DNA of 32,000 nucleotides from Candidatus Electrothrix yaqonensis (GTDB taxonomy: Bacteria > Desulfobacterota > Desulfobulbia > Desulfobulbales > Desulfobulbaceae): contig CP178758.1 of assembly GCA_047651235.1 (NCBI GenBank), forward strand, positions 1,800,001 to 1,832,000, in the 5' to 3' direction. The position numbers and the translations under genes are program-made. The number at the start of each line of letters is the position of its first letter. The stretch's first letter is position 1. The notes beneath the pieces are model-generated. The model saw only the letters and a list, made by a program, of their open reading frames with translations. It did no database searches and was not told where the DNA came from. Positions 95 through 32,000 of the stretch are shown here, in pieces.

Positions 95-846
95 GTAAAA
101 TTAATTATCCTGTCAAATGACTCGGCCTGCAGAGATGCGCCGCCCACCAAGGCGCCATCAACATCCGGCTGCGCCATGAGTCTGTCAATATTCTCAGGTT
201 TAACCGAGCCACCATACAATATCCTGACCGTATCGGCAAGAGTTTTTTCGTACAAATCATCAAGCATCCGCCGGACAAAGGCATGGGCCTCCTGAGCCTG
301 CTCCGTGGTGGCGGTTTTGCCGGTGCCGATAGCCCAGACCGGCTCGTAGGCTACCACCACCCGGCTCATTTCATCCGGGTTGACGCCTCTCAGACCCTGG
401 GTCAGCTGGTCTTCAAGAACTCTGAAGGTACGGCCTTGGTCCCGTTCCTCCAGGGTCTCGCCGATACAGAGGACGGGATCCAGATCAAAACGCAGGGCAC
501 CCAGCATACGCCGGTTAACCATCGCGTTATCTTCACCGAAATCGTGCCTCCGCTCCGAATGCCCTAAAATAACCATATCTGCTCCGGCATCATGGAGCAT
601 GGGCGGTGAGATTTCACCGGTATAAGCGCCCTCTTTGTCCCAGCAGACGTTCTGAGCCGCCACTCTGACCGGACTGTCGGCAACGGCCTGCCGGACATCG
701 GACAGAGAGATAAAGGAAGGGGCGATCATCACCTCCCGGTCGGTCAGCCCCCTGCTTGATGCGGCCACTGCCGAGGCAAGCTCTGCAGCCTCTGCTCTGG
801 TCAGGTGCATCTTCCAGTTTCCCGCAATCAACGGTTTTCGTGCCAT
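79..846 (-). CDS. tpiA: Triosephosphate isomerase
   Basis: 255-aa ORF. MARKPLIAGNWKMH at the N-terminus, plus ILGHSERR and AYEPVWAIGTGKTAT, are hallmark TIM motifs. It lies directly downstream of pgk. Confidence 0.97.
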   Translation of the reverse strand: MARKPLIAGNWKMHLTRAEAAELASAVAASSRGLTDREVMIAPSFISLSDVRQAVADSPVRVAAQNVCWDKEGAYTGEISPPMLHDAGADMVILGHSERRHDFGEDNAMVNRRMLGALRFDLDPVLCIGETLEERDQGRTFRVLEDQLTQGLRGVNPDEMSRVVVAYEPVWAIGTGKTATTEQAQEAHAFVRRMLDDLYEKTLADTVRILYGGSVKPENIDRLMAQPDVDGALVGGASLQAESFDRIINFTWKPC

Positions 847-908
847 ATTTTATCCTCCCAAGAAGATGGTATCGTTGTAAGAACCCTATTTTCGGTGCGG
901 AGTTGCAG

Positions 909-928
909 GGGCACGGCGCGCCGTGCCC
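909..928 (-). other. Perfect 20-nt GC-rich palindrome (stem-loop) in the pgk-tpiA spacer
   Basis: gggcacggcg|cgccgtgccc (909-928) is self-complementary. It is flanked by a second pair of arms, ttgcag (903-908) and ctgcaa (939-944). No U-tract follows on the transcribed (-) strand, so it looks like an intercistronic processing/stability element or a leaky terminator. The structure is certain; the function is not. Confidence 0.5.
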
Positions 929-950
929 TTACGGCATTCTGCAAAAAACG

Positions 951-2129
951 TTACCCTTCCAAAGCCGTCACACCGGGCAGTTCCTTGCCCTCCATGAGCA
1001 TGAGAAAGGCCCCGCCGCCGGTGGACATATAGGAAATATTATCCGCCTCTCCGGACAGCCGCACTGCGGCATTGGAATCTCCGCCGCCGGTGATGCTCAG
1101 GGCATGGGCTGAAGCCACGGTATGGGCCAGGGCCATCGTGCCTCTGGCAAAGGCGTCCATTTCAAAGGCGCCCATAGGGCCGTTCCAGACAATGGTCCGT
1201 GCGTCGGCCAGGACCTCAGAAAAACAGAGCACCGAGGCCGGGCCGATATCCAGAGCCATCCAGTTCTCCGGGATATCCTGGATCGTGACCTGTTTGCAGA
1301 CCGCATCCGGGGCAAAACGGTCAGCTACGATGACATCCACGGGCAGGTAGACCTTGACGCCTTTTTCCGCCGCATCGGCCAGCAGCTGACGGGCATTGTC
1401 CAGCAGGTCATCCTCCACCCTGGAAGCCCCCACCGAATATCCCTGACTTTTCAGAAAGGTATTGGCCATTGCTCCACCGATAAGCATCCGGTCCACCTTG
1501 CTCAGCATATTAGTCAGGGCCTCCAGTTTGCCGGAGACCTTGGCTCCGCCGACAATGGCGACCAGCGGTCGCTGCGGATCATCCACGGAACGATGGAAAC
1601 AGGTCATTTCTTTGTCCAACAGCAACCCGGCGCCTTTTTCCGAGCACAGGGCAGCGACTCCGACTGTTGAGGCATGGGCCCGATGGGAGACGGCAAAGGC
1701 ATCGTTAATATAGACATCAGCCAGCGCGGCCAGCTGTTTGGCGAATTCCGGCTCGTTGGCCTGCTCTTCGGCATGAAAACGCAGGTTTTCCAGCAGGATG
1801 ATTTCACCGTCGTTCATGGCGGCTACCGCGCTTTCCGCTTCCGGCCCGACGCAGTCCCGGGCCATGCGGACCGGCTTCTCCAGGATGCCGGACAGGTAGT
1901 GCGCAACCGGTGCGAGCGAATATTTTTGCACCCGCTGCCCCTTGGGGCGTCCCATGTGCGAGCAGAGGATCACCTTGGCCCCCTGCTCCAGAGCATACCC
2001 GATGGTCGGCAGGACAGTACGGATACGCAGGTCATCGGTGATTTCACCCTGGTCATTCATGGGCACGTTGAAATCCACCCGGATCAGAACCTGCTTGCCG
2101 TTGATATCAAGATCGCGAATTGTTTTCAT
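951..2129 (-). CDS. pgk: Phosphoglycerate kinase
   Basis: 392-aa ORF. It contains VLIRVDFNVP near the N-terminus and the STGGGAFLMLMEGKELPGV C-terminal motif. Length and overall pattern match PGK, and it sits between gap and tpiA. Confidence 0.97.
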   Translation of the reverse strand: MKTIRDLDINGKQVLIRVDFNVPMNDQGEITDDLRIRTVLPTIGYALEQGAKVILCSHMGRPKGQRVQKYSLAPVAHYLSGILEKPVRMARDCVGPEAESAVAAMNDGEIILLENLRFHAEEQANEPEFAKQLAALADVYINDAFAVSHRAHASTVGVAALCSEKGAGLLLDKEMTCFHRSVDDPQRPLVAIVGGAKVSGKLEALTNMLSKVDRMLIGGAMANTFLKSQGYSVGASRVEDDLLDNARQLLADAAEKGVKVYLPVDVIVADRFAPDAVCKQVTIQDIPENWMALDIGPASVLCFSEVLADARTIVWNGPMGAFEMDAFARGTMALAHTVASAHALSITGGGDSNAAVRLSGEADNISYMSTGGGAFLMLMEGKELPGVTALEG

Positions 2130-2168
2130 TGTTCATTCTTCTTTTTGTCAGGAAATTCCAATCCGTAG

Positions 2169-2238
2169 GGGCGAATCTTGTATTCGCCCTGTACTGTACA
2201 ACATGCCGCAATCAGGGGCGATCGCAAGGATCGCCCCT
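2169..2238 (-). other. Two adjacent GC-rich stem-loops in the gap-pgk spacer
   Basis: Hairpin 1 is gggcgaat (2169-2176) / attcgccc (2182-2189) with loop cttgt. Hairpin 2 is aggggcgatc (2214-2223) / gatcgcccct (2229-2238) with loop gcaag. The arms share a GGGGCGA core, and neither hairpin is followed by a U-tract on the (-) strand. Confidence 0.5.
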
Positions 2239-2245
2239 ACACCAC

Positions 2246-3466
2246 CTACACCATCCGCTCAGCCACAGAAACCGTCAAGTCACCGAGCATATTGGTATAG
2301 CTGCCCAGCTCGTTGTCGTACCAGCCATAGATGACAGCTTGGGTTACGGGAACCTCAAGAACATGAGGCCCTTGACCCGGATCAATGTTACAGCTTTTCA
2401 GATGATCAAGATTGACCTTGAGCGAAGCGGTGCGGGTATGGGTTTCTGTGGCTTCAATGACCGCTGCCGCCTCCGGAGTGCCGATAATGTCGGAAGAGAC
2501 ATTCTGTCCTTCGGAATATTTCAGGTACGGGTTGGTCTCAGCATATTCCTTGTAGATGGAATTGATCAGGTTGCGTTTCACCGGATTTTCCAGCTCGTCC
2601 TGCAGATTGAGCACCAGGACGATCAGGGAGCCGGTGGAAGTGGGCACCCGGACTGATTCGGCAATAAAGCCGATGCCTTTCATCTCCGGGATAACCAGAC
2701 CCAGAGCCTTGGCTGCACCGGTGGTGGTCAGGATGATATTATTGAGGATAGACCGATTTTTGCGCAGGTCAGTGGCTCCGGCAGCCGGAACAGCATCCAA
2801 CACCTTCTGACTGCCTGTGGCGGCATGGACTGTAACCATGGAGGCGGTCAACATCCGTCCGGCGCCGAAATGATCCATGAGCGGCTTGATCATATAGGAC
2901 AGGCAGGTGGTGGTACAGGAGGCAGCCGAGATAATGGAATGCCGGTCCGGGTTGTAATCGTCATCATTGATACCCATGACCGTGGTCACTGCATCATCCG
3001 GCATATCCAGGCCCTTGGATTTGATTTTGAACGGGGCCGAAACCATGACCTTTTCTGCACCGGCCTGGAGATGGCCGCGCACCGAGCCTCTCTGGGCGTC
3101 AGCATCAGCGGTCGGGTCTTTGAACACTCCGGTGGTATCCACCACCATGCGGATATTATTTTCCTGCCACTTGATATCCTTGGGATTGCGGGCCTCCCGC
3201 AGCACGGTGACCGGAACACCGTTCACGGTCATGGTGCCTGCAGCCTCGTTCAGGTTCTCAATCACCCGGCCTCCCTTATGACCATGCAGGTAGGTGGAAA
3301 GCCTGCCGTAGCTGGAATCTTTTTCAATGGTTGCGGCGATATCTTCTAGTCCGCTGCCGACCTGGCGGCCCAGATTGACTACAATTTCTGAAAAAAACTG
3401 ACGCGAAACATGGTGCCAGAGTGAGAGCTTTCCAATTCTGCCGAGACCGTTGATTCCCAGTTTCAT
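2246..3466 (-). CDS. gap: Glyceraldehyde-3-phosphate dehydrogenase (long, about 400-aa form)
   Basis: 406-aa ORF with the N-terminal Rossmann motif INGLGRIGK and the catalytic SAASCTTTCL (S-C-T-T) motif. Insertions make it longer than the canonical ~335-aa enzyme. It heads the gap-pgk-tpiA-secG string. Confidence 0.95.
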   Translation of the reverse strand: MKLGINGLGRIGKLSLWHHVSRQFFSEIVVNLGRQVGSGLEDIAATIEKDSSYGRLSTYLHGHKGGRVIENLNEAAGTMTVNGVPVTVLREARNPKDIKWQENNIRMVVDTTGVFKDPTADADAQRGSVRGHLQAGAEKVMVSAPFKIKSKGLDMPDDAVTTVMGINDDDYNPDRHSIISAASCTTTCLSYMIKPLMDHFGAGRMLTASMVTVHAATGSQKVLDAVPAAGATDLRKNRSILNNIILTTTGAAKALGLVIPEMKGIGFIAESVRVPTSTGSLIVLVLNLQDELENPVKRNLINSIYKEYAETNPYLKYSEGQNVSSDIIGTPEAAAVIEATETHTRTASLKVNLDHLKSCNIDPGQGPHVLEVPVTQAVIYGWYDNELGSYTNMLGDLTVSVAERMV

Positions 3467-3780
3467 AGTCGAGTTTCTCCTTTTTTCTCGTTTAATCTAA
3501 AAAATATAATCCGTATTCTATATTCTCCGAGGCTGAAGCTGCCGCAGTGAAATGTTCACAAGTAGAAGTATGACGGGACAAATCAGGATGTACTATATAT
3601 GGTATAAATCCATTTATTACAATGAAAAATCTTTTTATGGAAAATTTTTAACCGTCATTGAACAATATCCCTGCAGTGGTATTGCGTACTTGCAACGGGG
3701 GATACTTTATTGGAAACGGTCAGCTTTCAGGGGGAAATATTGGGCAGAAAACTGGATCGGAAGGGGTGGAAGGATTTTGT

Positions 3781-3816
3781 AAAAAAAGCCCCTGCCAAAA
3801 AATGACAGGGGCTTTT
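3781..3816 (-). terminator. Rho-independent terminator downstream of the DUF3800 gene (possibly bidirectional)
   Basis: The stem is agcccctg (3787-3794) / caggggct (3806-3813), 8 bp with an 11-nt loop. On the minus strand the stem is followed by T7 (the complement of the A-run 3781-3787), about 60 nt after the stop at 3874. A T4 run also follows on the plus side. Confidence 0.7.
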
Positions 3817-3873
3817 AAACTTAAATACGAAAACCGGAATGTCCGATCTCCAAAAGGTTACCAAAAGGCTATC

Positions 3874-4710
3874 TTACGGAGTTCTGAACTTGGTCCACTG
3901 GCTCTCGCCAGCATCAGTTTTACTACCGCTGTCCTGCTGTCTCCATTCGTCTATGCTTTGGTAGTGGTTAGAACCAACTGTAAAGTCTAACTGTATAGTC
4001 CCAGGAATGTAAGGATCCAGAACATCTTGAGCGATATCAGTCGTCCTTACAGTAACAAAACAGTTCTCCTTCTGGTTGCAATGACAATGAACATCCGCAG
4101 CCGCATGGTCATCAGTATTAAATATTATTCCATTGTCCACTGCCGTCAGTGTAAGGTTGAAGTCGTCAGTACACACGCCATAGGGCACACCTTCCGCATG
4201 ATGCAGCACCCGGAACCGGCAGCCTGAAGGCAGCATTCTTTTCAACACGGTCTTGACCGCCTTTTCTACAGCTGCCCGTTTCTTCTTTATCGGTATACTG
4301 TCAGTAATCACGATCAGCTCTTTCATGCTGTCCAGCTCTTCCCGCTCTTGTTCCGCAACGTGCCGGATCAGGTGCCCCAACATCCGGGGATAAAACTCTT
4401 CCGAAGCCTGCAAGGCCGGAACGATTTTGCTTTTCTCCACTATGAGCGAATCCACCCGCAAGTCTGCAATATTCTCTTTGATGATCCCGAATACCCGCTG
4501 CCGAACATGCCGGTTGTCTTGGGTGCAGTGGAAATATGAAAAGTCAAACCCGTATTCAATCAGGTCGAACTTGTATTTTCCTAATTCGTGGCAGACAGTG
4601 AAGGGGCGTTTGGTACAAACACTTGTCAGGGTGAAATACTTTGTCCCGGATGCAGCAAAATCCAGGTTCCCCCCTTCATCAAGAAAGATGTATAAACAGC
4701 CGTTGCTCAT
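3874..4710 (-). CDS. DUF3800-like protein (function unknown)
   Basis: The ORF-track entry 3874..4737 begins at a TTG. The ATG at 4710 preceded by aaggactcc is a better start and gives 278 aa. MSNGCLYIFLDEGGNLDF matches the xIDESG-type opening motif of DUF3800 proteins. I recognise no family for the C-terminal half. GC is visibly lower than in the neighbours. Confidence 0.6.
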   Translation of the reverse strand: MSNGCLYIFLDEGGNLDFAASGTKYFTLTSVCTKRPFTVCHELGKYKFDLIEYGFDFSYFHCTQDNRHVRQRVFGIIKENIADLRVDSLIVEKSKIVPALQASEEFYPRMLGHLIRHVAEQEREELDSMKELIVITDSIPIKKKRAAVEKAVKTVLKRMLPSGCRFRVLHHAEGVPYGVCTDDFNLTLTAVDNGIIFNTDDHAAADVHCHCNQKENCFVTVRTTDIAQDVLDPYIPGTIQLDFTVGSNHYQSIDEWRQQDSGSKTDAGESQWTKFRTP

Positions 4711-4992
4711 GGAGTCCTTGCAGTGTTCAGAAAACAAGAAGCCTCGTTATTATTGCCGGGAAAATTTGAAAGAGGTCTCCGGCAACGCATAGAGGATATT
4801 TTTTCAGGGGAGGATAAACAGGAGCGGGTGGGGTGTCAATGGTTCTTCAGTGGGTGAAAAAATATTCCGCCTGTATCTTTTCAGGGTAGAAAATTTGCCC
4901 CCATAACCGAAAAAGTGGGGGCAGTGTAGGGGCTGGAAGATCAAAAAAGAAAAAGGGACTCAGCTTAAAACAAGCTAATTCCCTATATATAT

Positions 4993-5068
4993 TGGTGGGC
5001 CGTGAAGGATTCGAACCTTCGACCAATTGATTAAGAGTCAACTGCTCTGCCAGCTGAGCTAACGGCCC
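4993..5068 (-). tRNA. tRNA-Lys (anticodon CTT), CCA encoded
   Basis: The reverse complement is GGGCCGTTAGCTCAGCTGGCAGAGCAGTTGACTCTTAATCAATTGGTCGAAGGTTCGAATCCTTCACGGCCCACCA. It folds as a cloverleaf: 7-bp acceptor, GCTC/GAGC D-stem, GTTGA/TCAAT anticodon stem with loop CTCTTAA (anticodon CTT), GAAGG/CCTTC T-stem with a TTCGAAT loop, and a 3' CCA. Confidence 0.93.
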
Positions 5069-5156
5069 TTATTATTGAAAGTTGAAAGGATAGCGGTTTG
5101 TTTACCACAGCATGAGCGCGACGTCAAGATTGACCTGCCGTTTTCAGGCAAAAAAA

Positions 5157-7436
5157 TTACCGATAATACAGACTCGGACTGCCCATGGTCTGCATAACCT
5201 GATACAGATGGCGGCGGAAATCCCGCCGGTCGGTGATACCCTGGATATGGCCCCGTTTCAGAGCATTTCTGGAGTCATGATAATCAGGCGGAATATCAAT
5301 ACCTGTGGTTTCTCGGATAACTCTGGGGCCGGCAAAACCGATGCGGCTGGAACGGATGGCGAACTGATACGGAGAGCATCCCAGAAAAGAGGCCACCGGC
5401 CCGGCATAGGAGTTGTTGTCATAAACCACGATATAGAGTCCGCCGGCATCGATGTATTCCCGCACCGCCATTGTACATTTGGGCATCTGAGCTACCCCCA
5501 AGGTGCCTTCCTGGATACGGATGCCGCCGGTGGTATGGATATAGGCCAGCAGGGGCCGCTTTTTACGCCGGGCTCTGTCACAGGCCCGGACAAATTTTTC
5601 CCCTTCCGCAGAACCGACCGTTCCGTTCCGGAAATCAGAAAACAACATGGTGACTACCAGGTTGATATCCTTGACCCGGGCATCAAAGGTGAGGTTGGCG
5701 CAGCCCATGCCGGTTCTTGAACGCGCTGCTTTCAGGCGCTCGTCAAATCCCTCGTAATTCAACGGGTTACGGGAAAATATCTCGTTATTGAAAATCCGGA
5801 CAGAACCTGGATCAAAAATATTCTTCAGATACCACTGATATTCAAGGGGAAAATGATAACCGCAGTTTTCGCAGACCCCGCAGAATTCACCGTACAGATC
5901 AGGGATCCAGAGGTCCTGACAGCCGTACTTTTCCGTATTAGGACAGGTGACAGTACGGTCTTCATTGGCCAGCGGACTGGTGTAGGTATCTGTCAGTTCC
6001 AGAGGATCCTGGATGAGACAGTAGTCGCCGGAGGTCTGGGGTGCACCGGGCAGCGGTCTGACAGCAGGGTGTTGTTTTTTGGCTGTTTGTCCGAACAGCG
6101 CGCTGTAGGCTGAGGTAAAGGGTGCAGTAAGCCGGTTGACCAGAGCTGTTCCTTCGCCGGAGACCTCCTTGATGGTCTTCTGCATCTGCTTCTGCCGATT
6201 TTTCAGGACATCATAGCGGAAGGTGTACCAGAGTTTTTCTGTTGCCGAATAAATGGACTTGAACAGATTCTCTGCCGGAATATTGATGACCCCGAAACTG
6301 TGCAGGCTCATAGCTCTGTATTTTTTGGAGCGTTCTTTGAGCAGCCGTTCGGTTTCCTTGTCATCCAGGTCCCAGGGGATATCAATCTGCGGCGCTTCAT
6401 CCGGGTTTTCCGCCTTTTTCCGTTTGACCTCATAGGAACGGAAGCTGTGCATACTTTTAGTCTTCAGTACTATCTCATCCGTAGCCCGGATGATTTCGGA
6501 ACGAATTCTGGCGAAAAAATTAAAATCATCGCTTTGTGCTCCCAGGAGTGGTTCATGGATGATCCGGTCAACAGTGCCGAGACGGAGGTTATCCGCTGCT
6601 GTGATATTGAGCTGCCGGGCACAGCGTTCAATCAGTTCAGGAGGAACTTTTTCCCCCTCCCCGGCTCTGCCTTCGATGGCAGCAGCACCTTCCGGCGAAA
6701 TGACCGAGTAGTAGCCGTGGGAAAACATGAGGCGGAAGTCGCTCATTCCCACAGCCTCGGCTCCGCCGGAACCGCCTTCGGAAATGACGGAAATCATGGG
6801 TACCCGCAGTTTGGCCATAGTATAGAGGTTGCGGGCGATCTGCTGGGCTGCTCCGGGATATTCCTCCACCGGATAGGAACCGGGCGTGAAAATATAAAAA
6901 TGAATAGGAATGCCTTCGGTTTCCGCCACCTTCATGTAGCGCATGGCCTTTTCATTACCCCAAGGTTTGCAGGAACCGCCGTTGCGGAACTCCTCGCCGT
7001 GGCCGACTTCCTGACCGATGATCATCACCGGTGAGGTGTAGGGTTTTCTTTTAATCCGCCGGACAATATTGGCCTTTGCCACTACCAAGGCCGGATCAAT
7101 ATTGGCTTCTCCTTCGCCACCAAGTTCGGTATGTTCCTCATAGACGTTTTCCAGAATATCCTTGAGGGAGAACCGGAGCGGCGAGCGGACAATCCGGACC
7201 CGCTCCATCGGAGTCAGCCCCTCTTCGCAGCGTTCTTCCAAAAAACGGACAGCATCTTCCAGCCTGTCAAGACGTGCACTGAGCTTTTCCTCATCCAGGT
7301 CAAAGACAGTATTTTTCAGCTGTTCGGCTTTATCCCGGAACTCATGGAGATTTCCCCATTTGTCGTTGTCCTTGATATGAATCAGATAACCGATGCGCCG
7401 GTCAATCTCCTGGAGTTGTTTGATAAGGTCGTTCAT
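5157..7436 (-). CDS. Acetyl-CoA carboxylase carboxyltransferase, single polypeptide with an AccA-like N-terminal half and an AccD-like C-terminal half
   Basis: 759-aa ORF. Residues ~100-330 align by eye with AccA (PVMIIGQE..., FIFTPGSYP, ARNL, VISEGGSGGA, YSVISPEGAAAI, IIHEPLLGA). Residues ~470-759 align with AccD: a Cys-rich zinc-ribbon region CPNTEKYGC...FCGVCENCGYHF, then GTVGSAEGEKF and RIGFAGPRVIRETTG. A linker of about 130 aa joins the two halves. Confidence 0.9.
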   Translation of the reverse strand: MNDLIKQLQEIDRRIGYLIHIKDNDKWGNLHEFRDKAEQLKNTVFDLDEEKLSARLDRLEDAVRFLEERCEEGLTPMERVRIVRSPLRFSLKDILENVYEEHTELGGEGEANIDPALVVAKANIVRRIKRKPYTSPVMIIGQEVGHGEEFRNGGSCKPWGNEKAMRYMKVAETEGIPIHFYIFTPGSYPVEEYPGAAQQIARNLYTMAKLRVPMISVISEGGSGGAEAVGMSDFRLMFSHGYYSVISPEGAAAIEGRAGEGEKVPPELIERCARQLNITAADNLRLGTVDRIIHEPLLGAQSDDFNFFARIRSEIIRATDEIVLKTKSMHSFRSYEVKRKKAENPDEAPQIDIPWDLDDKETERLLKERSKKYRAMSLHSFGVINIPAENLFKSIYSATEKLWYTFRYDVLKNRQKQMQKTIKEVSGEGTALVNRLTAPFTSAYSALFGQTAKKQHPAVRPLPGAPQTSGDYCLIQDPLELTDTYTSPLANEDRTVTCPNTEKYGCQDLWIPDLYGEFCGVCENCGYHFPLEYQWYLKNIFDPGSVRIFNNEIFSRNPLNYEGFDERLKAARSRTGMGCANLTFDARVKDINLVVTMLFSDFRNGTVGSAEGEKFVRACDRARRKKRPLLAYIHTTGGIRIQEGTLGVAQMPKCTMAVREYIDAGGLYIVVYDNNSYAGPVASFLGCSPYQFAIRSSRIGFAGPRVIRETTGIDIPPDYHDSRNALKRGHIQGITDRRDFRRHLYQVMQTMGSPSLYYR

Positions 7437-29900: not shown

Positions 29901-30337
29901 GATGTTGCTGTTTAGACAGGTCAAGTATCAAGGCAACTGTCCGGCTGTGTACAGTTTTTTATGTAAAAATAATTAATATTTTTTTGACTATACTTGGAAA
30001 AAAAATATTTTTTTAAGCAAACAAGCAGATATTGAGGAAGCTTTTTTGTAAATGCTTTCTTTTTGATCCTGCTTTCCTTTGTATATTACTATAAAAACAG
30101 CATGTTATGTCGAATTCAAGAGTGATAATTTCTTCTATGTATCTTTTTGAAATAAATATATTTTTTTCTTGACTTGGCGTTTAAAGTTTTATACTCTTGT
30201 ATAAGAAAGTTGATTACTGCTGTTTCCTTCTGAATTGCAAGAGAAAGAGAGGAGAAAATTTGCGGTGCGGCTTTCGTAAAAAGTTTGTCAGTCGTATACA
30301 GAAACAACATTCATAATTATGGCAGCGCTTATTCAGT

Positions 30338-30452
30338 AAGCAGGTGCTGTGCTTTCCGGTCGGAAACGGAAAGCTGATAAAGCCACAACCGCCGCGAGGC
30401 GGTGTCGGAAAACTTCGGGTCTCCGGAAAGGAGACGGCCGGGTTGCCTGCTT
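30338..30452 (+). ncRNA. Candidate structured RNA core, unit copy 1 (unassigned family; leader or riboregulator)
   Basis: The closing helix is aagcaggtg (30338-30346) / tgcctgctt (30444-30452). It encloses three hairpins: 30351-30374 (gctttccg/cggaaagc), 30388-30403 (accgcc-GCGA-ggcggt) and 30419-30435 (gtctcc-ggaaa-ggagac). See the findings for covariation between copies. Confidence 0.45.
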
Positions 30453-30479
30453 TTAGTCAGATGTACCGGGAGGTAAGTT

Positions 30480-30617
30480 ATGAAGTCGAAGCTCCTTAAA
30501 ACGGTCTGTAACCATACAGTCCTTTTACCTTTCACAAACACGAACATTCATAATTATGGCAGTGCTTATTATTCAGTAAGCAGGTGCTGTGCTTTCCGGT
30601 CGGAAACGGAAAGCTGA
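30480..30617 (+). CDS. Hypothetical 45-aa sORF opened by the unit-1 SD/ATG
   Basis: GGGAGG (30468-30473), then 6 nt, then ATG. It reads MKSKLLKTVCNHTVLLPFTNTNIHNYGSAYYSVSRCCAFRSETES and stops at TGA TAA inside unit 2. It is below the 60-aa cutoff of the ORF track. Coding status is unproven. Confidence 0.3.
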   Translation: MKSKLLKTVCNHTVLLPFTNTNIHNYGSAYYSVSRCCAFRSETES

Positions 30618-30692
30618 TAAAGCCACAATCGTCGCGAGGCGATGTCGGAAAACTTCGGGTCTCCGGAAAGGAGACGGCCGGGTTGCCTGCTT
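30578..30692 (+). ncRNA. Candidate structured RNA core, unit copy 2
   Basis: Same fold as copy 1. The middle hairpin is atcgtc-GCGA-ggcgat, with C-G to U-A at pair 2 and C to U (giving G-U) at pair 5. Confidence 0.45.
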
Positions 30693-30719
30693 TTAGTCAA
30701 ATGTACCGGGAGGTAAGTT

Positions 30720-30854
30720 ATGAAGTCGAAGCTCCTTAAAACGGTCTGTAACCATACAGTCCTTTTACCTTTCACAAACACGAACATTCATAATTATGGC
30801 AGCGCTTATTCAGTAAGCAGGTGCTGTGCTTTCCGGTCAGAAACGGAAAGTTGA
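30720..30854 (+). CDS. Hypothetical 44-aa sORF opened by the unit-2 SD/ATG
   Basis: Same SD spacing. It reads MKSKLLKTVCNHTVLLPFTNTNIHNYGSAYSVSRCCAFRSETES. It differs from the first sORF by two synonymous changes and one in-frame codon. Confidence 0.3.
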   Translation: MKSKLLKTVCNHTVLLPFTNTNIHNYGSAYSVSRCCAFRSETES

Positions 30855-30929
30855 TAAAGCCACAACCGCTGCGAGGCGGTGTCGGAAAACTTCGGGTCTC
30901 CGGAAAGGAGACGGCCGGGTTGCCTGCTT
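30815..30929 (+). ncRNA. Candidate structured RNA core, unit copy 3
   Basis: Same fold. The first hairpin closes with G-U (cggaaagt) and its loop reads gtcagaaa. The middle hairpin is accgct-GCGA-ggcggt, with a G-U at the loop-closing pair. Confidence 0.45.
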
Positions 30930-30956
30930 TTAGTCAGATGTACCGGGAGGTAAGTT

Positions 30957-31091
30957 ATGAAGTCGAAGCTCCTTAAAACGGTCTGTAACTATACAGTCCT
31001 TTTACCTTTCACAAACACGAACATTCATAATTATGGCAGCGCTTATTCAGTAAGCAGGTGCTGTGCTTTCCGGTCGGACACGGAAAGCTGA
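30957..31091 (+). CDS. Hypothetical 44-aa sORF opened by the unit-3 SD/ATG
   Basis: Same SD spacing. It reads MKSKLLKTVCNYTVLLPFTNTNIHNYGSAYSVSRCCAFRSDTES, with H12Y and E41D relative to the other copies. Confidence 0.3.
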   Translation: MKSKLLKTVCNYTVLLPFTNTNIHNYGSAYSVSRCCAFRSDTES

Positions 31092-31165
31092 TAAAGCCAC
31101 AATCGTCGTGAGGCGATGTCGGAAAACTTCGGGTCTCCCAAAGGAGACGGCCGGGTTGCCTGCTT
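31052..31165 (+). ncRNA. Candidate structured RNA core, unit copy 4
   Basis: Same fold. The middle hairpin is atcgtc-GUGA-ggcgat, so the tetraloop is still GNRA. The third hairpin keeps gtctcc/ggagac while its loop is shortened from ggaaa to caaa. Confidence 0.45.
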
Positions 31166-31194
31166 TTAGTCAAATCTGTACCGGGAGGTAAGTT

Positions 31195-31422
31195 ATGAAA
31201 TCGAAGTTCCCCAGAAGCGGCTTGCAGCTGTCTGTTTTCTTCAGCTGCGCCAGCAGTTCAGCTGGTCGCCGCCACTCTTCTCCTTCTGTTCGGAAAAAAC
31301 ACAAAATATTTACGGATAGTATCGGCTCCAAGTGTCATCGATCAGGTGCAGTTTTAGCTCTGTCTCCAGATTTCAAAGAGGGACAGTTCGACGATACTGA
31401 AAAACATCATTCAACCTGCTAA
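31195..31422 (+). CDS. Hypothetical 75-aa ORF opened by the unit-4 SD/ATG (Ser/Lys/Arg-rich, no recognisable family)
   Basis: It has the same GGGAGG-N6-ATG and the first four residues MKSK as the sORFs, then reads unique sequence (FPRSGLQLSVFFSCASSSAGRRHSS...). The composition is not typical of a globular protein, and AT-rich DNA follows. Confidence 0.3.
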   Translation: MKSKFPRSGLQLSVFFSCASSSAGRRHSSPSVRKKHKIFTDSIGSKCHRSGAVLALSPDFKEGQFDDTEKHHSTC

Positions 31423-31664: not shown

Positions 31665-32000
31665 ATGGATAGATATTTTACAATAATACTACTGATGTTA
31701 TTTCTTTGTACTGCGTCTGTGGCTATTGGAAAAGAAAATAAACAATTTTCCGGTGCTTTTTTGATTGACCAAACTGTAAAAGCAAACGATTTTACCGGGA
31801 AATCTGTTAGTGATGCCGGTGTTGCCCAAGGCGGAAATGTTGTTACAGGAATGGCGATTGCAGGAGTAGGTCAGAACGCAATTCTTGACGGTGACCTTGA
31901 ATTGAAAATGAAAAAAGGCGAGCGCAACACCCAGGGCCTGAACGTTGTTTCCGGCAAAGTAACGGCGCTTGTCGGTCAGATCGGCGTGGTTGATGAGGAT
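31665..32000 (+). CDS. Secreted Gly/Val/Gln/Asn-rich protein, N-terminal 112 codons (runs off the right edge)
   Basis: Absent from the ORF track because there is no stop in the window. GGAGG (31652-31656) lies 8 nt before ATG 31665. The signal peptide is MDRYFTIILLMLFLCTASVAIG. The frame then stays open to 32000 (...GVAQGGNVVTGMAIAGVGQNAILDGDLELKMKKGERNTQGLNVVSGKVTALVGQIGVVDED). I recognise no family. Confidence 0.6.
   Translation, partial: MDRYFTIILLMLFLCTASVAIGKENKQFSGAFLIDQTVKANDFTGKSVSDAGVAQGGNVVTGMAIAGVGQNAILDGDLELKMKKGERNTQGLNVVSGKVTALVGQIGVVDED

Follow-up and report, generated by a model that had tools for sequence, protein, structure and literature searches.

The window analysed here is a stretch of 32,000 nucleotides from Candidatus Electrothrix yaqonensis (contig CP178758.1, forward-strand positions 1,800,001 to 1,832,000). 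Towards its 3' end lies a tandem array of four riboswitch units, each with a short leader ORF (all from the ORF list), and after them the start of a gene for a secreted protein:

30306 to 31210, + strand: tandem array of four riboswitch units (TRF: period 237, 3.8 copies, 94% matches)
30372 to 30450, + strand: c-di-GMP-I aptamer of unit 1 (RF01051, 55.8 bits)
30612 to 30690, + strand: c-di-GMP-I aptamer of unit 2 (RF01051, 54.0 bits)
30849 to 30927, + strand: c-di-GMP-I aptamer of unit 3 (RF01051, 54.2 bits)
31086 to 31163, + strand: c-di-GMP-I aptamer of unit 4 (RF01051, 55.3 bits)
30480 to 30617, + strand: leader ORF of unit 1, 45 aa, its UGA stop inside the junction of aptamer 2
30720 to 30854 and 30957 to 31091, + strand: leader ORFs of units 2 and 3, 44 aa each
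31195 to 31422, + strand: leader ORF of unit 4, 75 aa
31665 to 32000, + strand: 5' part of the downstream gene, which runs on beyond the window; its product is a 137-aa secreted protein, the first of a paralog cluster

Each of the four units measures 237-240 nt, and the spacing from ATG to ATG is 240, 237 and 238 nt. All four aptamers are followed by the element ACCGGGAGG, a 6-nt spacer and an AUG, which places a strong ribosome-binding site and a start codon 15-30 nt 3' of each aptamer, and each has its own masking block on the 5' side. Judged from this layout, the array is a tandem riboswitch of complete units, each with its own predicted expression platform.

An alignment of the four copies bears out what had been read from the letters alone about the changes between them. 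Pair 2 of the middle hairpin goes from C-G to U-A on both arms in copies 2 and 4, the other stem changes are C-to-U substitutions that leave G-U pairs, the tetraloop turns from GCGA to GUGA in copy 4, and the remaining differences fall in loops; the stems are indeed kept by compensatory and G-U-forming changes. The 3-nt insertion of copy 2 is also there, but the small gctta/taagc hairpin in whose loop it was placed spans 30327-30341, not 30328-30342. Two further derived states, at pair 5 of the middle hairpin and an A at 30462/31177, are common to copies 2 and 4, so the double change at pair 2 was probably a single event rather than two.

A cmscan search of Rfam identifies the repeated RNA. 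The c-di-GMP-I family (RF01051, GEMM-I) is matched in all four units, on the + strand only, at 54-56 bits and thus 19-21 bits above the gathering score of 35. The sequence-only reading had looked for the c-di-GMP-I signature and reported it absent, which was wrong; with an aptamer of this class in every copy, the structure that it had described stays but the novelty that it implied goes. These matches also confirm its proposal of a plus-sense RNA, and its reading of a structured and functional one is supported. What it had called hairpins 2 and 3 are the aptamer stems P2, with its GNRA loop, and P3. In unit 1, P2 occupies 30388-30403 and P3 30411-30443; the P2 tetraloop is GCGA in three copies and GUGA in one, unit 4, whose P3 loop is also 1 nt shorter. 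Across 11 units the P2 stem is 100% paired, with C-G to U-A changes, and the P3 helix 98.5% paired, the internal-loop positions of the tetraloop receptor in the RF01051 model being deleted.

The ligand-contact nucleotides of the c-di-GMP-I riboswitch are G20, A47 and C92 (Vc2 numbering). Their equivalents in unit 1 are G30382, A30409 and C30446, and the same G/A/C set is present in copies 2-4 and invariant across all 12 related units. This pattern is canonical for c-di-GMP, which, on these nucleotides, is the ligand expected here rather than cGAMP. Three neighbouring classes were considered and rejected. The GEMM-Ib riboswitches for cGAMP carry A at the G20 position, and all four copies and all related units have G there. 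The c-di-GMP-I-GGC model (RF03167) scores the window copies at 54.4-58.4 bits against a gathering threshold of 59, which none of them reaches, and A30409 stands against the model's G, the A47G change being absent. The c-di-GMP-I-UAU model (RF03168) needs U20 and U92 (consensus aaU-gC ... UGUC) in place of G30382 and C30446. For both variants, whose models score high from the shape of P3, the defining positions were taken from the Rfam consensus lines. For the contact set G20, A47 and C92 see also PMC7288161.

The closed three-hairpin fold proposed for the repeat is real. In unit 1 the closing helix aagcaggtg/tgcctgctt (30338-46/30444-52), hairpin 1 (30351-58/30367-74), the GCGA hairpin (30388-403) and the third hairpin (30419-35) are all present as described, and together they form the exact minimum-energy structure of the isolated segment 30336-30455 (-54.7 kcal/mol against -40.7 +/- 3.4 in shuffles, z = -4.16). 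The minus strand folds about equally well (z = -4.5), so the strand is not given by folding energy alone; whole-unit minimum-energy folding is no guide by itself, and there too both strands fold well. The fold is conserved, since RNAalifold on 12 units from 8 loci returns it again, and 96.3% of cells are paired against 35-49% in slid controls. As the ligand-binding fold, however, it probably does not serve, because its closing helix pairs G30344 with C30446, the C92 equivalent that must be free for the ligand, and because hairpin 1 occupies the canonical local closing-stem strand. The closed fold is best read as a ligand-free alternative conformer of the riboswitch.

Around the aptamer lie the accessory helices, given here for unit 1 with units 2-4 in brackets:

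30338 to 30346 (30578-86, 30815-23, 31052-60), + strand: 5' strand of the long-range closing helix P1long, pairing with 30444-30452 (30684-92, 30921-29, 31157-65); 92% of cells paired in 11 units
30351 to 30374 (30591-30614, 30828-51, 31065-88), + strand: hairpin 1 (gctttccg, loop, cggaaagc), outside the Rfam model; 94% of cells paired
30371 to 30376 (30611-16, 30848-53, 31085-90), + strand: 5' strand AAGCUG of the local closing stem P1loc, pairing with CUGCUU at 30447-52, with an invariant U.U mismatch
30465 to 30473 (30705-13, 30942-50, 31180-88), + strand: ACCGGGAGG, ribosome-binding site (GGGAGG) and anti-Shine-Dalgarno target, partner of the anti-SD arm at 30352-60
30310 to 30318 (30547-55, 30787-95, 31024-32), + strand: 5' strand of the anti-start helix P0, UUCAUAAUU, complementary to AGUUAUGAA at 30476-84 across the start codon

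The 3' end of the aptamer thus has two closing stems that compete for it, P1loc flanking the junction and its long-range rival P1long. P1loc stands directly 5' of the AUAAAG junction, the canonical closing-stem position in the c-di-GMP-I class. Five of its six pairs are standard in 11 of 11 units, including a C-G to U-A change in L005, and in L012 an extra A turns the U.U mismatch into an A-U pair with a bulged U; alone the stem is weak, at about -1 kcal/mol. Its register was taken from the ligand contacts listed for 4YAZ (G8; A11-C15; A41, A42; G74-C76; PMC7288161), by which G8 maps to the invariant G30376 and C76 to C30447. P1long is part of the RNAalifold consensus; its pairs 8-9 change from U.G/G.U to U-A/A-U in L014 and to G-C in L012, and it is degraded in L030.

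The 5' arm of hairpin 1 (30352-60, CUUUCCGGU) is the complement of the ribosome-binding region, and the 3' arm shares nucleotides with the local closing stem. In L005 and L014 the hairpin has exchanged pairs, C-G for U-A and G-C for A-U. The alternative helix between anti-SD arm and ribosome-binding site has nine pairs, two of them G-U, with 93% of cells paired in 11 units, and L012 is the unit that lacks good anti-SD pairing. In L005 the positions C30357, G30368 and G30468 are replaced by U, A and A, and C30341, G30351, C30374 and G30449 are all changed as well; L014 has U for C30357 and A for G30468, leaving a U.G in hairpin 1. The anti-start helix P0 appears in constrained minimum-energy folds. 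Immediately 3' of its strand, AUGGCA (30319-24) pairs with UGCUGU (30345-50), and the small hairpin (30327-31/30337-41) follows. P0 is retained in L028a/b, L012 and L020, where U.G has become C-G and U-A has become A-U, and is absent in L005, L014 and L027. Taken together, the fold made of the anti-start helix, small hairpin, anti-SD:SD helix and P1loc has 91.4% of cells paired, against 35-52% in slid controls.

The upstream block, comprising the anti-start stretch, the small hairpin, the long-range strand AAGCAGGUG and hairpin 1, is common to other Electrothrix riboswitches, and hairpin 1 and the long closing helix recur in single-copy units of other Candidatus Electrothrix genomes. About eight independent lineages stand behind the comparison of accessory helices, with few pairs changing on both sides, and these helices would not pass an R-scape-type test on the present alignment. 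A pattern scan of metagenomes gave three loci, L027 being the only one of cable type, so deep covariation statistics are not possible. Another search for units, made with a spurious antisense ORF that crosses the aptamer, returned one cluster (L030-32).

We propose that these helices form a two-state switch in which the 3' strand CUGCUU would choose between two partners, the local AAGCUG and the distant AAGCAGGUG. Without ligand, hairpin 1 would form and lock its own 5' arm, the anti-Shine-Dalgarno, and CUGCUU together with the C92 equivalent would be captured by the distant strand, giving the closed three-hairpin fold. P1long would thus act in the ligand-free state as a decoy for the 3' strand of the closing stem; the ribosome-binding site would be free and the short leader ORF translated (ON). 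Binding of c-di-GMP would stabilise the canonical stem AAGCUG/CUGCUU, which takes the base of hairpin 1, and the released CUUUCCGGU could then pair with ACCGGGAGG, the resulting helix stacking beside the anti-start helix over the AUG and turning translation OFF. That the locus holds four complete c-di-GMP-I units upstream of a secreted-protein cluster, in which c-di-GMP turns leader-ORF translation OFF, is in our judgement probable. We infer the direction of the switch from closing-stem homology and modelled nearest-neighbour energies. Forcing P1loc leaves the ribosome-binding site with a mean unpaired probability of 0.01-0.21, and forcing hairpin 1 gives 0.22-0.49; the site is the more unpaired with hairpin 1 in 11 of 12 units, the exception being L012. 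The hairpin-1 ensemble is the more stable in 10 of 12 units, by up to about 9 kcal/mol, and the local-stem ensemble is slightly more stable in L028b (0.4 kcal/mol) and L020 (1.4 kcal/mol). Ligand binding at nanomolar affinity could bridge a gap of up to about 9 kcal/mol.

The same riboswitch could also work with the opposite logic, an alternative that we consider unlikely. Here the closed fold would be the ligand-bound state, P1long closing a four-way junction to which hairpin 1 adds the extra branch; the ligand would hold the anti-SD arm in hairpin 1, and c-di-GMP would turn leader-ORF translation ON. In its favour, RNAalifold and energy minimisation of the isolated element both arrive at the closed fold, the 6-bp core AAGCAG/CUGCUU of that fold makes a better helix than P1loc with its mismatch, and the long-range helix is conserved with wobble-to-Watson-Crick changes. 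However, pairs 7-9 of P1long, which are conserved and covary, sequester the equivalents of C92 and G74 that are needed for the ligand. Hairpin 1 (-13.6 kcal/mol), moreover, already outcompetes the anti-SD:SD helix (-11.2 kcal/mol) without ligand, so a switch of this kind would stay ON whether or not ligand is bound. Against the opposite logic there also stand the invariant U30375-G30376-A30377 at the canonical closing-stem position and the L012 insertion, which improves P1loc only.

How an OFF signal on a leader ORF might reach the genes downstream is a weaker point. Leader-ORF translation may set read-through into them, an untranslated C-rich spacer perhaps allowing Rho-dependent or hairpin-dependent termination, and four units in series may sharpen the response. 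The spacer contains one recurrent feature:

30503 to 30522 (again at 30743-62 and 30980-99), + strand: spacer hairpin ggtctgta-acca-tacagtcc within the leader ORF

A C-rich, G-poor stretch lies 3' of this hairpin, and the 78 nt that follow each ATG hold C and G at 20:10. The idea that every unit has an intrinsic terminator was not upheld: in the window the hairpin is followed by UUUUACCUUU, but in L028a, where the hairpin is kept, there is no U run. A terminator scan flagged nothing after aptamers 1-3, and the only terminator-like site is at 31217-31231, inside the unit 4 leader ORF. The leader ORFs are, by their codon changes, unlikely to be conserved small proteins. L028a has a 44-aa ORF in the same frame and with the same stop as that of unit 1, and the two differ by 6 synonymous and 18 non-synonymous codons (10/8/17 differences by codon position); the unit 4 ORF is not kept, the ORF at the same place in L028 having 32 aa, and its 75-aa product has no Pfam match and is not on record as a called gene.

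A more speculative version, which we put forward as doubtful, would chain the units. Each leader ORF stops at an invariant UGA within the binding junction of the next aptamer, and its translation might unfold the next sensor and its masking elements; together with an upstream platform in which two 5' strands compete for one 3' strand, this would make an ultrasensitive c-di-GMP gate on secreted, cysteine-tailed proteins specific to cable bacteria. If true, cable bacteria would have an architecture of their own for the c-di-GMP-I riboswitch, and the four chained units of the present array would make the gate ribosome-coupled and multi-step.

The protein encoded downstream has three QGxNVV repeats and the C-terminus NACEGCQ, and is 100% identical to P0001, ACL93V_08665 of Ca. 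Electrothrix sp. YB6 (Ca. E. yaqonensis). It belongs to no Pfam or NCBIfam family, its AlphaFold model is uninformative (mean pLDDT 30), and its own family has so far been met only in cable-bacterial or unassigned metagenome sequences. An exact-protein look-up for the 75-aa ORF, the 44-aa ORF and P0001 returned no record. On the related metagenome contig L028, two tandem units stand upstream of a 67%-identical ortholog; the HemB contig (L001) ends before the array. Since the gene possesses a separate AT-rich promoter-like region at 470 nt past the last AUG, co-transcription of array and gene is only putative. Homology between this region and the AT-rich one that precedes the array was not upheld, the two giving no convincing alignment. 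Candidate 5' ends of an array transcript lie near 30018 and near 30203.

These promoter-like regions, upstream of the array and between array and gene, would also suit a stand-alone transcript that acts in trans or buffers c-di-GMP with four high-affinity sites per RNA and exerts no cis control, as would the roughly 470 nt between last AUG and gene, the terminator-like site at 31217-31231 and leader ORFs that are not conserved as proteins. Such a role nevertheless appears quite improbable to us, given that the two-unit array of L028 sits at the same place upstream of an orthologous gene, that all units preserve a strong ribosome-binding site, a start codon and complementary masking sequences, for which a sponge or trans-acting RNA has no obvious need, and that single-copy relatives lie directly upstream of real genes (L014, L030). 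That the repeat is a new orphan RNA or riboswitch class with another ligand, as the sequence-only reading implied, is hardly credible: it is true that no Rfam model covers the upstream block, hairpin 1 or the long closing helix, but relatives without these accessory helices are ordinary GEMM-I riboswitches with terminators, and for the aptamer core the idea is already refuted by four RF01051 matches so far above the gathering score and by conserved junction nucleotides that are all present.

This clears away a false lead: the RNA does not form an orphan class, and the ligand can be given with good confidence. The repeated RNA belongs to a known class, and it is the four-copy layout and the upstream switching elements that are unusual, with a platform on the 5' side and a putative decoy closing helix. 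We know of no earlier indication of c-di-GMP riboswitches being at work in cable bacteria, and our literature searches found no paper linking the two. The array would also be a natural tandem c-di-GMP riboswitch of four units, the largest that we found described having three (PMC4759541, PMC12452182). Because YB6 makes conspicuous extracellular sheaths (PMC12093952), a secreted family gated by c-di-GMP would be a concrete lead for envelope and sheath biology, the link being putative.

Compared with RF01051 riboswitches such as Vibrio cholerae Vc2, the units share the three-helix junction with a GNRA-capped P2 and a P3, the AAAG / GG-AA / GCC junction nucleotides, G/A/C at 20, 47 and 92, a 5' leader location and a score well above the gathering threshold. 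They differ in that P3 seems to lack the 11-nt tetraloop receptor, whose model positions are deleted, CC/GG replaces GC/GC as the paired dinucleotide beside G20, the switching elements are placed 5' of the aptamer, and the 3' strand of the closing stem has a second, distant partner. A short P3, apparently without receptor, is also what they have in common with RF03167 and RF03168. In Salmonella mgtA/mgtL and in E. coli ribB, thiM and lysC, translational riboswitches or leader ORFs set Rho-dependent termination. The present units resemble them in that the ligand is predicted to act on the ribosome-binding site of a short or early coding region, with a C-rich, G-poor stretch behind it; this likeness to Rho-controlled leaders serves as a working analogy only.

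With the GEMM-Ib 3',3'-cGAMP riboswitches of Geobacter (4YAZ), in which tandem copies are common, the units share the fold and the broad lineage (Thermodesulfobacteriota/Desulfobacterota); they depart from them by a G at the G20 position in all units, where GEMM-Ib (4YAZ) carries A (PMC7288161). In layout the array resembles the Bc3-5 triple-tandem c-di-GMP-I riboswitch of Bacillus thuringiensis, which gives a more stringent and more digital response (PMC4759541) and likewise strings several complete c-di-GMP-I riboswitches together within one leader. Our array comes from a different phylum and has no match to a terminator consensus after its first three aptamers; it consists of four units rather than three, which are near-identical recent duplicates (94%), and each of them carries its own ribosome-binding site, AUG and leader ORF.

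All four copies of the repeat carry an aptamer of the c-di-GMP-I class (GEMM-I, RF01051), detected on the plus strand only when Rfam 15 was searched with cmscan. The sequence-only reading had reported the c-di-GMP-I signature as absent; this was wrong, as the four matches lie far above the gathering score of 35:

30372-30450, plus strand, aptamer of unit 1, 55.8 bits
30612-30690, plus strand, aptamer of unit 2, 54.0 bits
30849-30927, plus strand, aptamer of unit 3, 54.2 bits
31086-31163, plus strand, aptamer of unit 4, 55.3 bits

The sole other Rfam match in the window is a tRNA gene (RF00005, 73 bits; 4996-5068, minus strand). P2, the GNRA-capped aptamer stem, is the second of the three hairpins described earlier, and P3 is the third. 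The RF01051 features present are the score, P2 with its GNRA loop, P3, the contact nucleotides and the flanking closing stem, whereas the window units lack the tetraloop receptor or have a different one. The interpretation of the element as a new RNA fails: the riboswitch class is known, and the novelty lies in its arrangement.

The variant classes GGC and UAU are named after the nucleotides at positions 20, 47 and 92 (Vc2 numbering), and the consensus lines of both models were read. The Geobacter cGAMP-sensing subclass, marked by A20, is ruled out by G30382, and the UAU variant by the absence of U20 and U92 (G30382, C30446). At permissive thresholds c-di-GMP-I-GGC (RF03167) reaches 54-58 bits, slightly below its gathering score of 59; its defining A47G is absent (A30409). 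The high scores of the variant models are explained by a short, receptor-less P3 common to both, and by nothing else. Since the contact nucleotides in the window copies are the canonical G/A/C (G30382, A30409, C30446), with no variant nucleotides, c-di-GMP is the expected ligand. Elsewhere, RF03167 and RF03168 (UAU) exceed their gathering thresholds on canonical G/A/C aptamers, at 556-637, 2196-2277 and 3876-3957 of locus L011 (MAG PL23a_bin.76) and at 6154-6232 of metagenome locus L030; such a match alone is thus no sign of altered ligand specificity.

The units form a single long array (30306-31210; Tandem Repeats Finder period 237, 3.8 copies, 94% matches). Reading the sequence and aligning the four copies recovered all the helices and copy-to-copy differences previously described. 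Pair 2 of P2 is U-A in copies 2 and 4 and C-G in copies 1 and 3, the remaining stem changes are C-to-U substitutions that leave G-U pairs behind, the tetraloop is GUGA in copy 4 and GCGA in the other three, and all other differences fall at loop positions. The 3-nt loop insertion of copy 2 is also there, but the small hairpin that holds it lies at 30327-30341, one base away from where it had been placed. Three derived states are common to copies 2 and 4, and only 4 positions separate copy 1 from copy 3, which argues for a single event behind the double change in P2; most simply, it arose once and then spread, either as AB to ABAB or through gene conversion, instead of arising twice independently.

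The minimum-energy fold of 30336-30455 is exactly the closed three-hairpin structure proposed from the sequence, at -54.7 kcal/mol versus -40.7 +/- 3.4 for shuffles (z = -4.16). Folding of the reverse strand is just as good, and energy is therefore no guide to the strand; the plus sense is given by the earlier G-U argument and by the Rfam matches, all on that strand.

Scanning the genome collection for the pattern showed this aptamer subtype to occur in several Thermodesulfobacteriota as well as in other bacteria. Many non-cable relatives have a classical terminator 3' of the aptamer and nothing resembling hairpin 1. Cable-bacterial loci resemble the window unit over about 175 nt, with identities of up to 88%: Ca. 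E. gigas L005, L012 and L020, Ca. E. aarhusensis L014, and, from metagenomes, L027 and L030-32. Hairpin 1 and the long closing helix fall within this stretch, as do GCCUGCUUUUA, a strong ribosome-binding site and a start codon. After this start codon, L014 has, directly adjoining, a real gene for a 182-aa secreted protein, and L005, L012 and L020 have short, unconvincing ORFs only; L030 has a 48-aa ORF, then a 304-aa gene about 260 nt past the riboswitch AUG with a faint PilJ-domain match. A single cable-type unit in L030 precedes two successive gene pairs (2321-5842, locus minus strand); in either pair the first protein has about 305 aa and a faint match to the PilJ domain, and the second has about 266 aa and no family. 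L011 carries three c-di-GMP-I-type aptamers about 1.65 kb apart on one strand (556-3957), each preceded by a near-identical stretch beginning GACGAAAUGGAGGAGG, and looks like a tandemly duplicated gene-plus-riboswitch cassette. Other RNAs were also seen: L005 has a cobalamin riboswitch (RF00174, 129 bits; 2906-3090, minus strand) about 2 kb from its c-di-GMP riboswitch, and L006, a Thermodesulfobacteriota MAG contig that also has a GEMM-I aptamer, carries group II intron domains (RF02005, RF00029; 2381-3305, minus strand).

Structure conservation was assessed on alignments A2 and A4, which comprise 11-12 units of 8 loci; RNAalifold returned the closed three-hairpin fold from them unprompted. 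An alternative fold, mutually exclusive with it, is similarly well conserved.

Conservation of the two folds (alignment cells paired)
Closed three-hairpin fold, whole: 96.3%
Slid controls for that fold: 35-49%
Long closing helix: 92%
Hairpin 1: 94%
P2: 100%
P3: 98.5%
Alternative fold, whole: 91.4%
Anti-SD helix, CUUUCCGGU 30352-30360 with ACCGGGAGG 30465-30473: 93%
Anti-start helix, UUCAUAAUU 30310-30318 with AGUUAUGAA 30476-30484: 84.5%, good only in the four closest lineages
Local closing stem, AAGCUG 30371-30376 with CUGCUU 30447-30452: in each unit, 5 of the 6 pairs are standard and the other is an invariant U.U

L005 carries U in place of C30357 and A in place of both partners of that base, G30368 in hairpin 1 and G30468 adjoining the ribosome-binding site; C30374 is likewise replaced by U, with matching changes at G30351 (hairpin 1), G30449 (3' strand) and C30341 (long-range strand). 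Where the local stem otherwise has its U.U, L012 has an A-U pair with a bulged U, owing to an inserted A that plays no part in hairpin 1. These informative changes, linked across both folds, are suggestive, the few lineages falling short of a statistical decision.

The ligand contacts in the GEMM-I structure 4YAZ (G8, A11-C15, A41, A42 and G74-C76; PMC7288161) fix the register of the closing stem. Its top is a G six nt 5' of the G20-equivalent, paired with the C just 3' of the C92-equivalent; in the window this is the invariant G30376 with C30447, which belongs to the local stem and not to the long-range helix. The conserved form of the latter, 8-9 bp long, pairs G30344 with C30446 (C92-equivalent) and U30345 with G30445 (G74-equivalent), and would thereby block the binding site. 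At these pairs, U.G/G.U becomes U-A/A-U in L014 and G-C in L012. A30371-C30374 serve both in the local stem and as the base of hairpin 1; formation of the local stem would open hairpin 1 and free a 5' arm complementary to the ribosome-binding site. In constrained partition functions, the mean unpaired probability of this site was 0.01-0.21 with the local stem forced and 0.22-0.49 with hairpin 1 forced, the latter being higher in 11 of 12 units (the exception is L012). The hairpin-1 ensemble is favoured in 10/12 units, by up to about 9 kcal/mol, a gap that a nanomolar ligand could cover; in L020 and the second unit of metagenome contig L028 (L028b) the local-stem ensemble is slightly favoured, by 1.4 and 0.4 kcal/mol, respectively. 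The opposite logic, in which the ligand stabilises the closed fold, would give ON in both states, because hairpin 1 on its own, at -13.6 kcal/mol, already beats the anti-SD helix at -11.2. We propose, with moderate confidence, that the closed three-hairpin fold is the ligand-free, translation-ON conformer and that c-di-GMP would switch the unit OFF. With similar, moderate confidence, the decoy strand (30338-30346), when idle, would be held by the small hairpin 30327-30341 and an AUGGCA/UGCUGU helix.

Downstream of the array lies a truncated gene (31665-32000) whose product matches, with 100% identity, a hypothetical protein (137 aa) from Candidatus Electrothrix sp. YB6. This cable bacterium, whose genome is closed, has been described under the name Ca. 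Electrothrix yaqonensis, and the description mentions neither riboswitches nor c-di-GMP (PMC12093952). The protein has a signal peptide, three QGxNVV repeats and a C-terminal NACEGC(Q/R), no family in Pfam or NCBIfam, and an uninformative AlphaFold model (pLDDT 30). On L028, a JGI metagenome contig, the gene for an ortholog with 67% identity is followed by three further genes, of which two or more encode paralogs with the same repeats. Two tandem units (RF01051 at 130-208 and 365-443) lie about 440 nt upstream of this ortholog; thus array and position are conserved between species and copy number alone differs (2 versus 4). The paralogous secreted proteins P0001-P0005 (window 31665-32000; L028 878-2919) have about 126-163 aa, three QGxNVV repeats and an invariant C-terminal NACEGC(Q/R); the family matches nothing in Pfam or NCBIfam and so far comprises only cable-bacterial or unassigned metagenome sequences. 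The gene at 31665 is preceded by its own promoter-like AT-rich region, so co-transcription with the array is putative. Upstream of the array there are two candidate sigma-70-type promoters, within 29984-30011 and 30169-30195; TTGACT-N16-TATTTT was flagged by the scan, and TTGACT-N15-TATACT, whose spacer is below the scan's range, was found by eye.

The AUGs at 30480, 30720 and 30957 each open a 44-45-aa leader ORF that stops at an invariant UGA in the junction of the next aptamer. This UGA (30375-30377, 30615-30617, 30852-30854 and 31089-31091) includes the G topping the canonical closing stem. A ribosome terminating there would sit on the next sensor and cover the masking elements and junction of that unit; it is tempting to speculate that the units may be coupled to each other. 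The first unit of L028 keeps the same 44-aa frame without indels. The peptide is poorly conserved between the window and L028 (6 synonymous versus 18 non-synonymous codon differences; codon positions 10/8/17), and the last-unit ORFs are wholly different (75 aa versus 32 aa). This pattern suggests that the output is likely the act of translation, not the peptide. The 78 nt 3' of each AUG have a C:G ratio of 20:10 and a conserved hairpin; when untranslated, this C-rich spacer could plausibly act as a Rho entry site or weak terminator. A conserved intrinsic terminator in the spacer is ruled out, as the first L028 unit (L028a) has no U run.

Our literature search found no paper linking cable bacteria with riboswitches or c-di-GMP regulation. 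The worth of this locus lies in how its switch is built and in the uncharacterised family of secreted proteins that it appears to control in a cable bacterium. What is new is the four-unit copy number, the 5'-side platform with its decoy closing helix, and the chaining of units via leader ORFs. Tandem complete c-di-GMP-I riboswitches, in contrast, are already known, with an enrichment of tandem c-di-GMP riboswitches reported for Thermodesulfobacteriota (PMC12452182). In the triple tandem Bc3-5 riboswitch the response is more stringent and digital (PMC4759541); by analogy, the four units of the window, compared with three in Bc3-5, would extend this logic.
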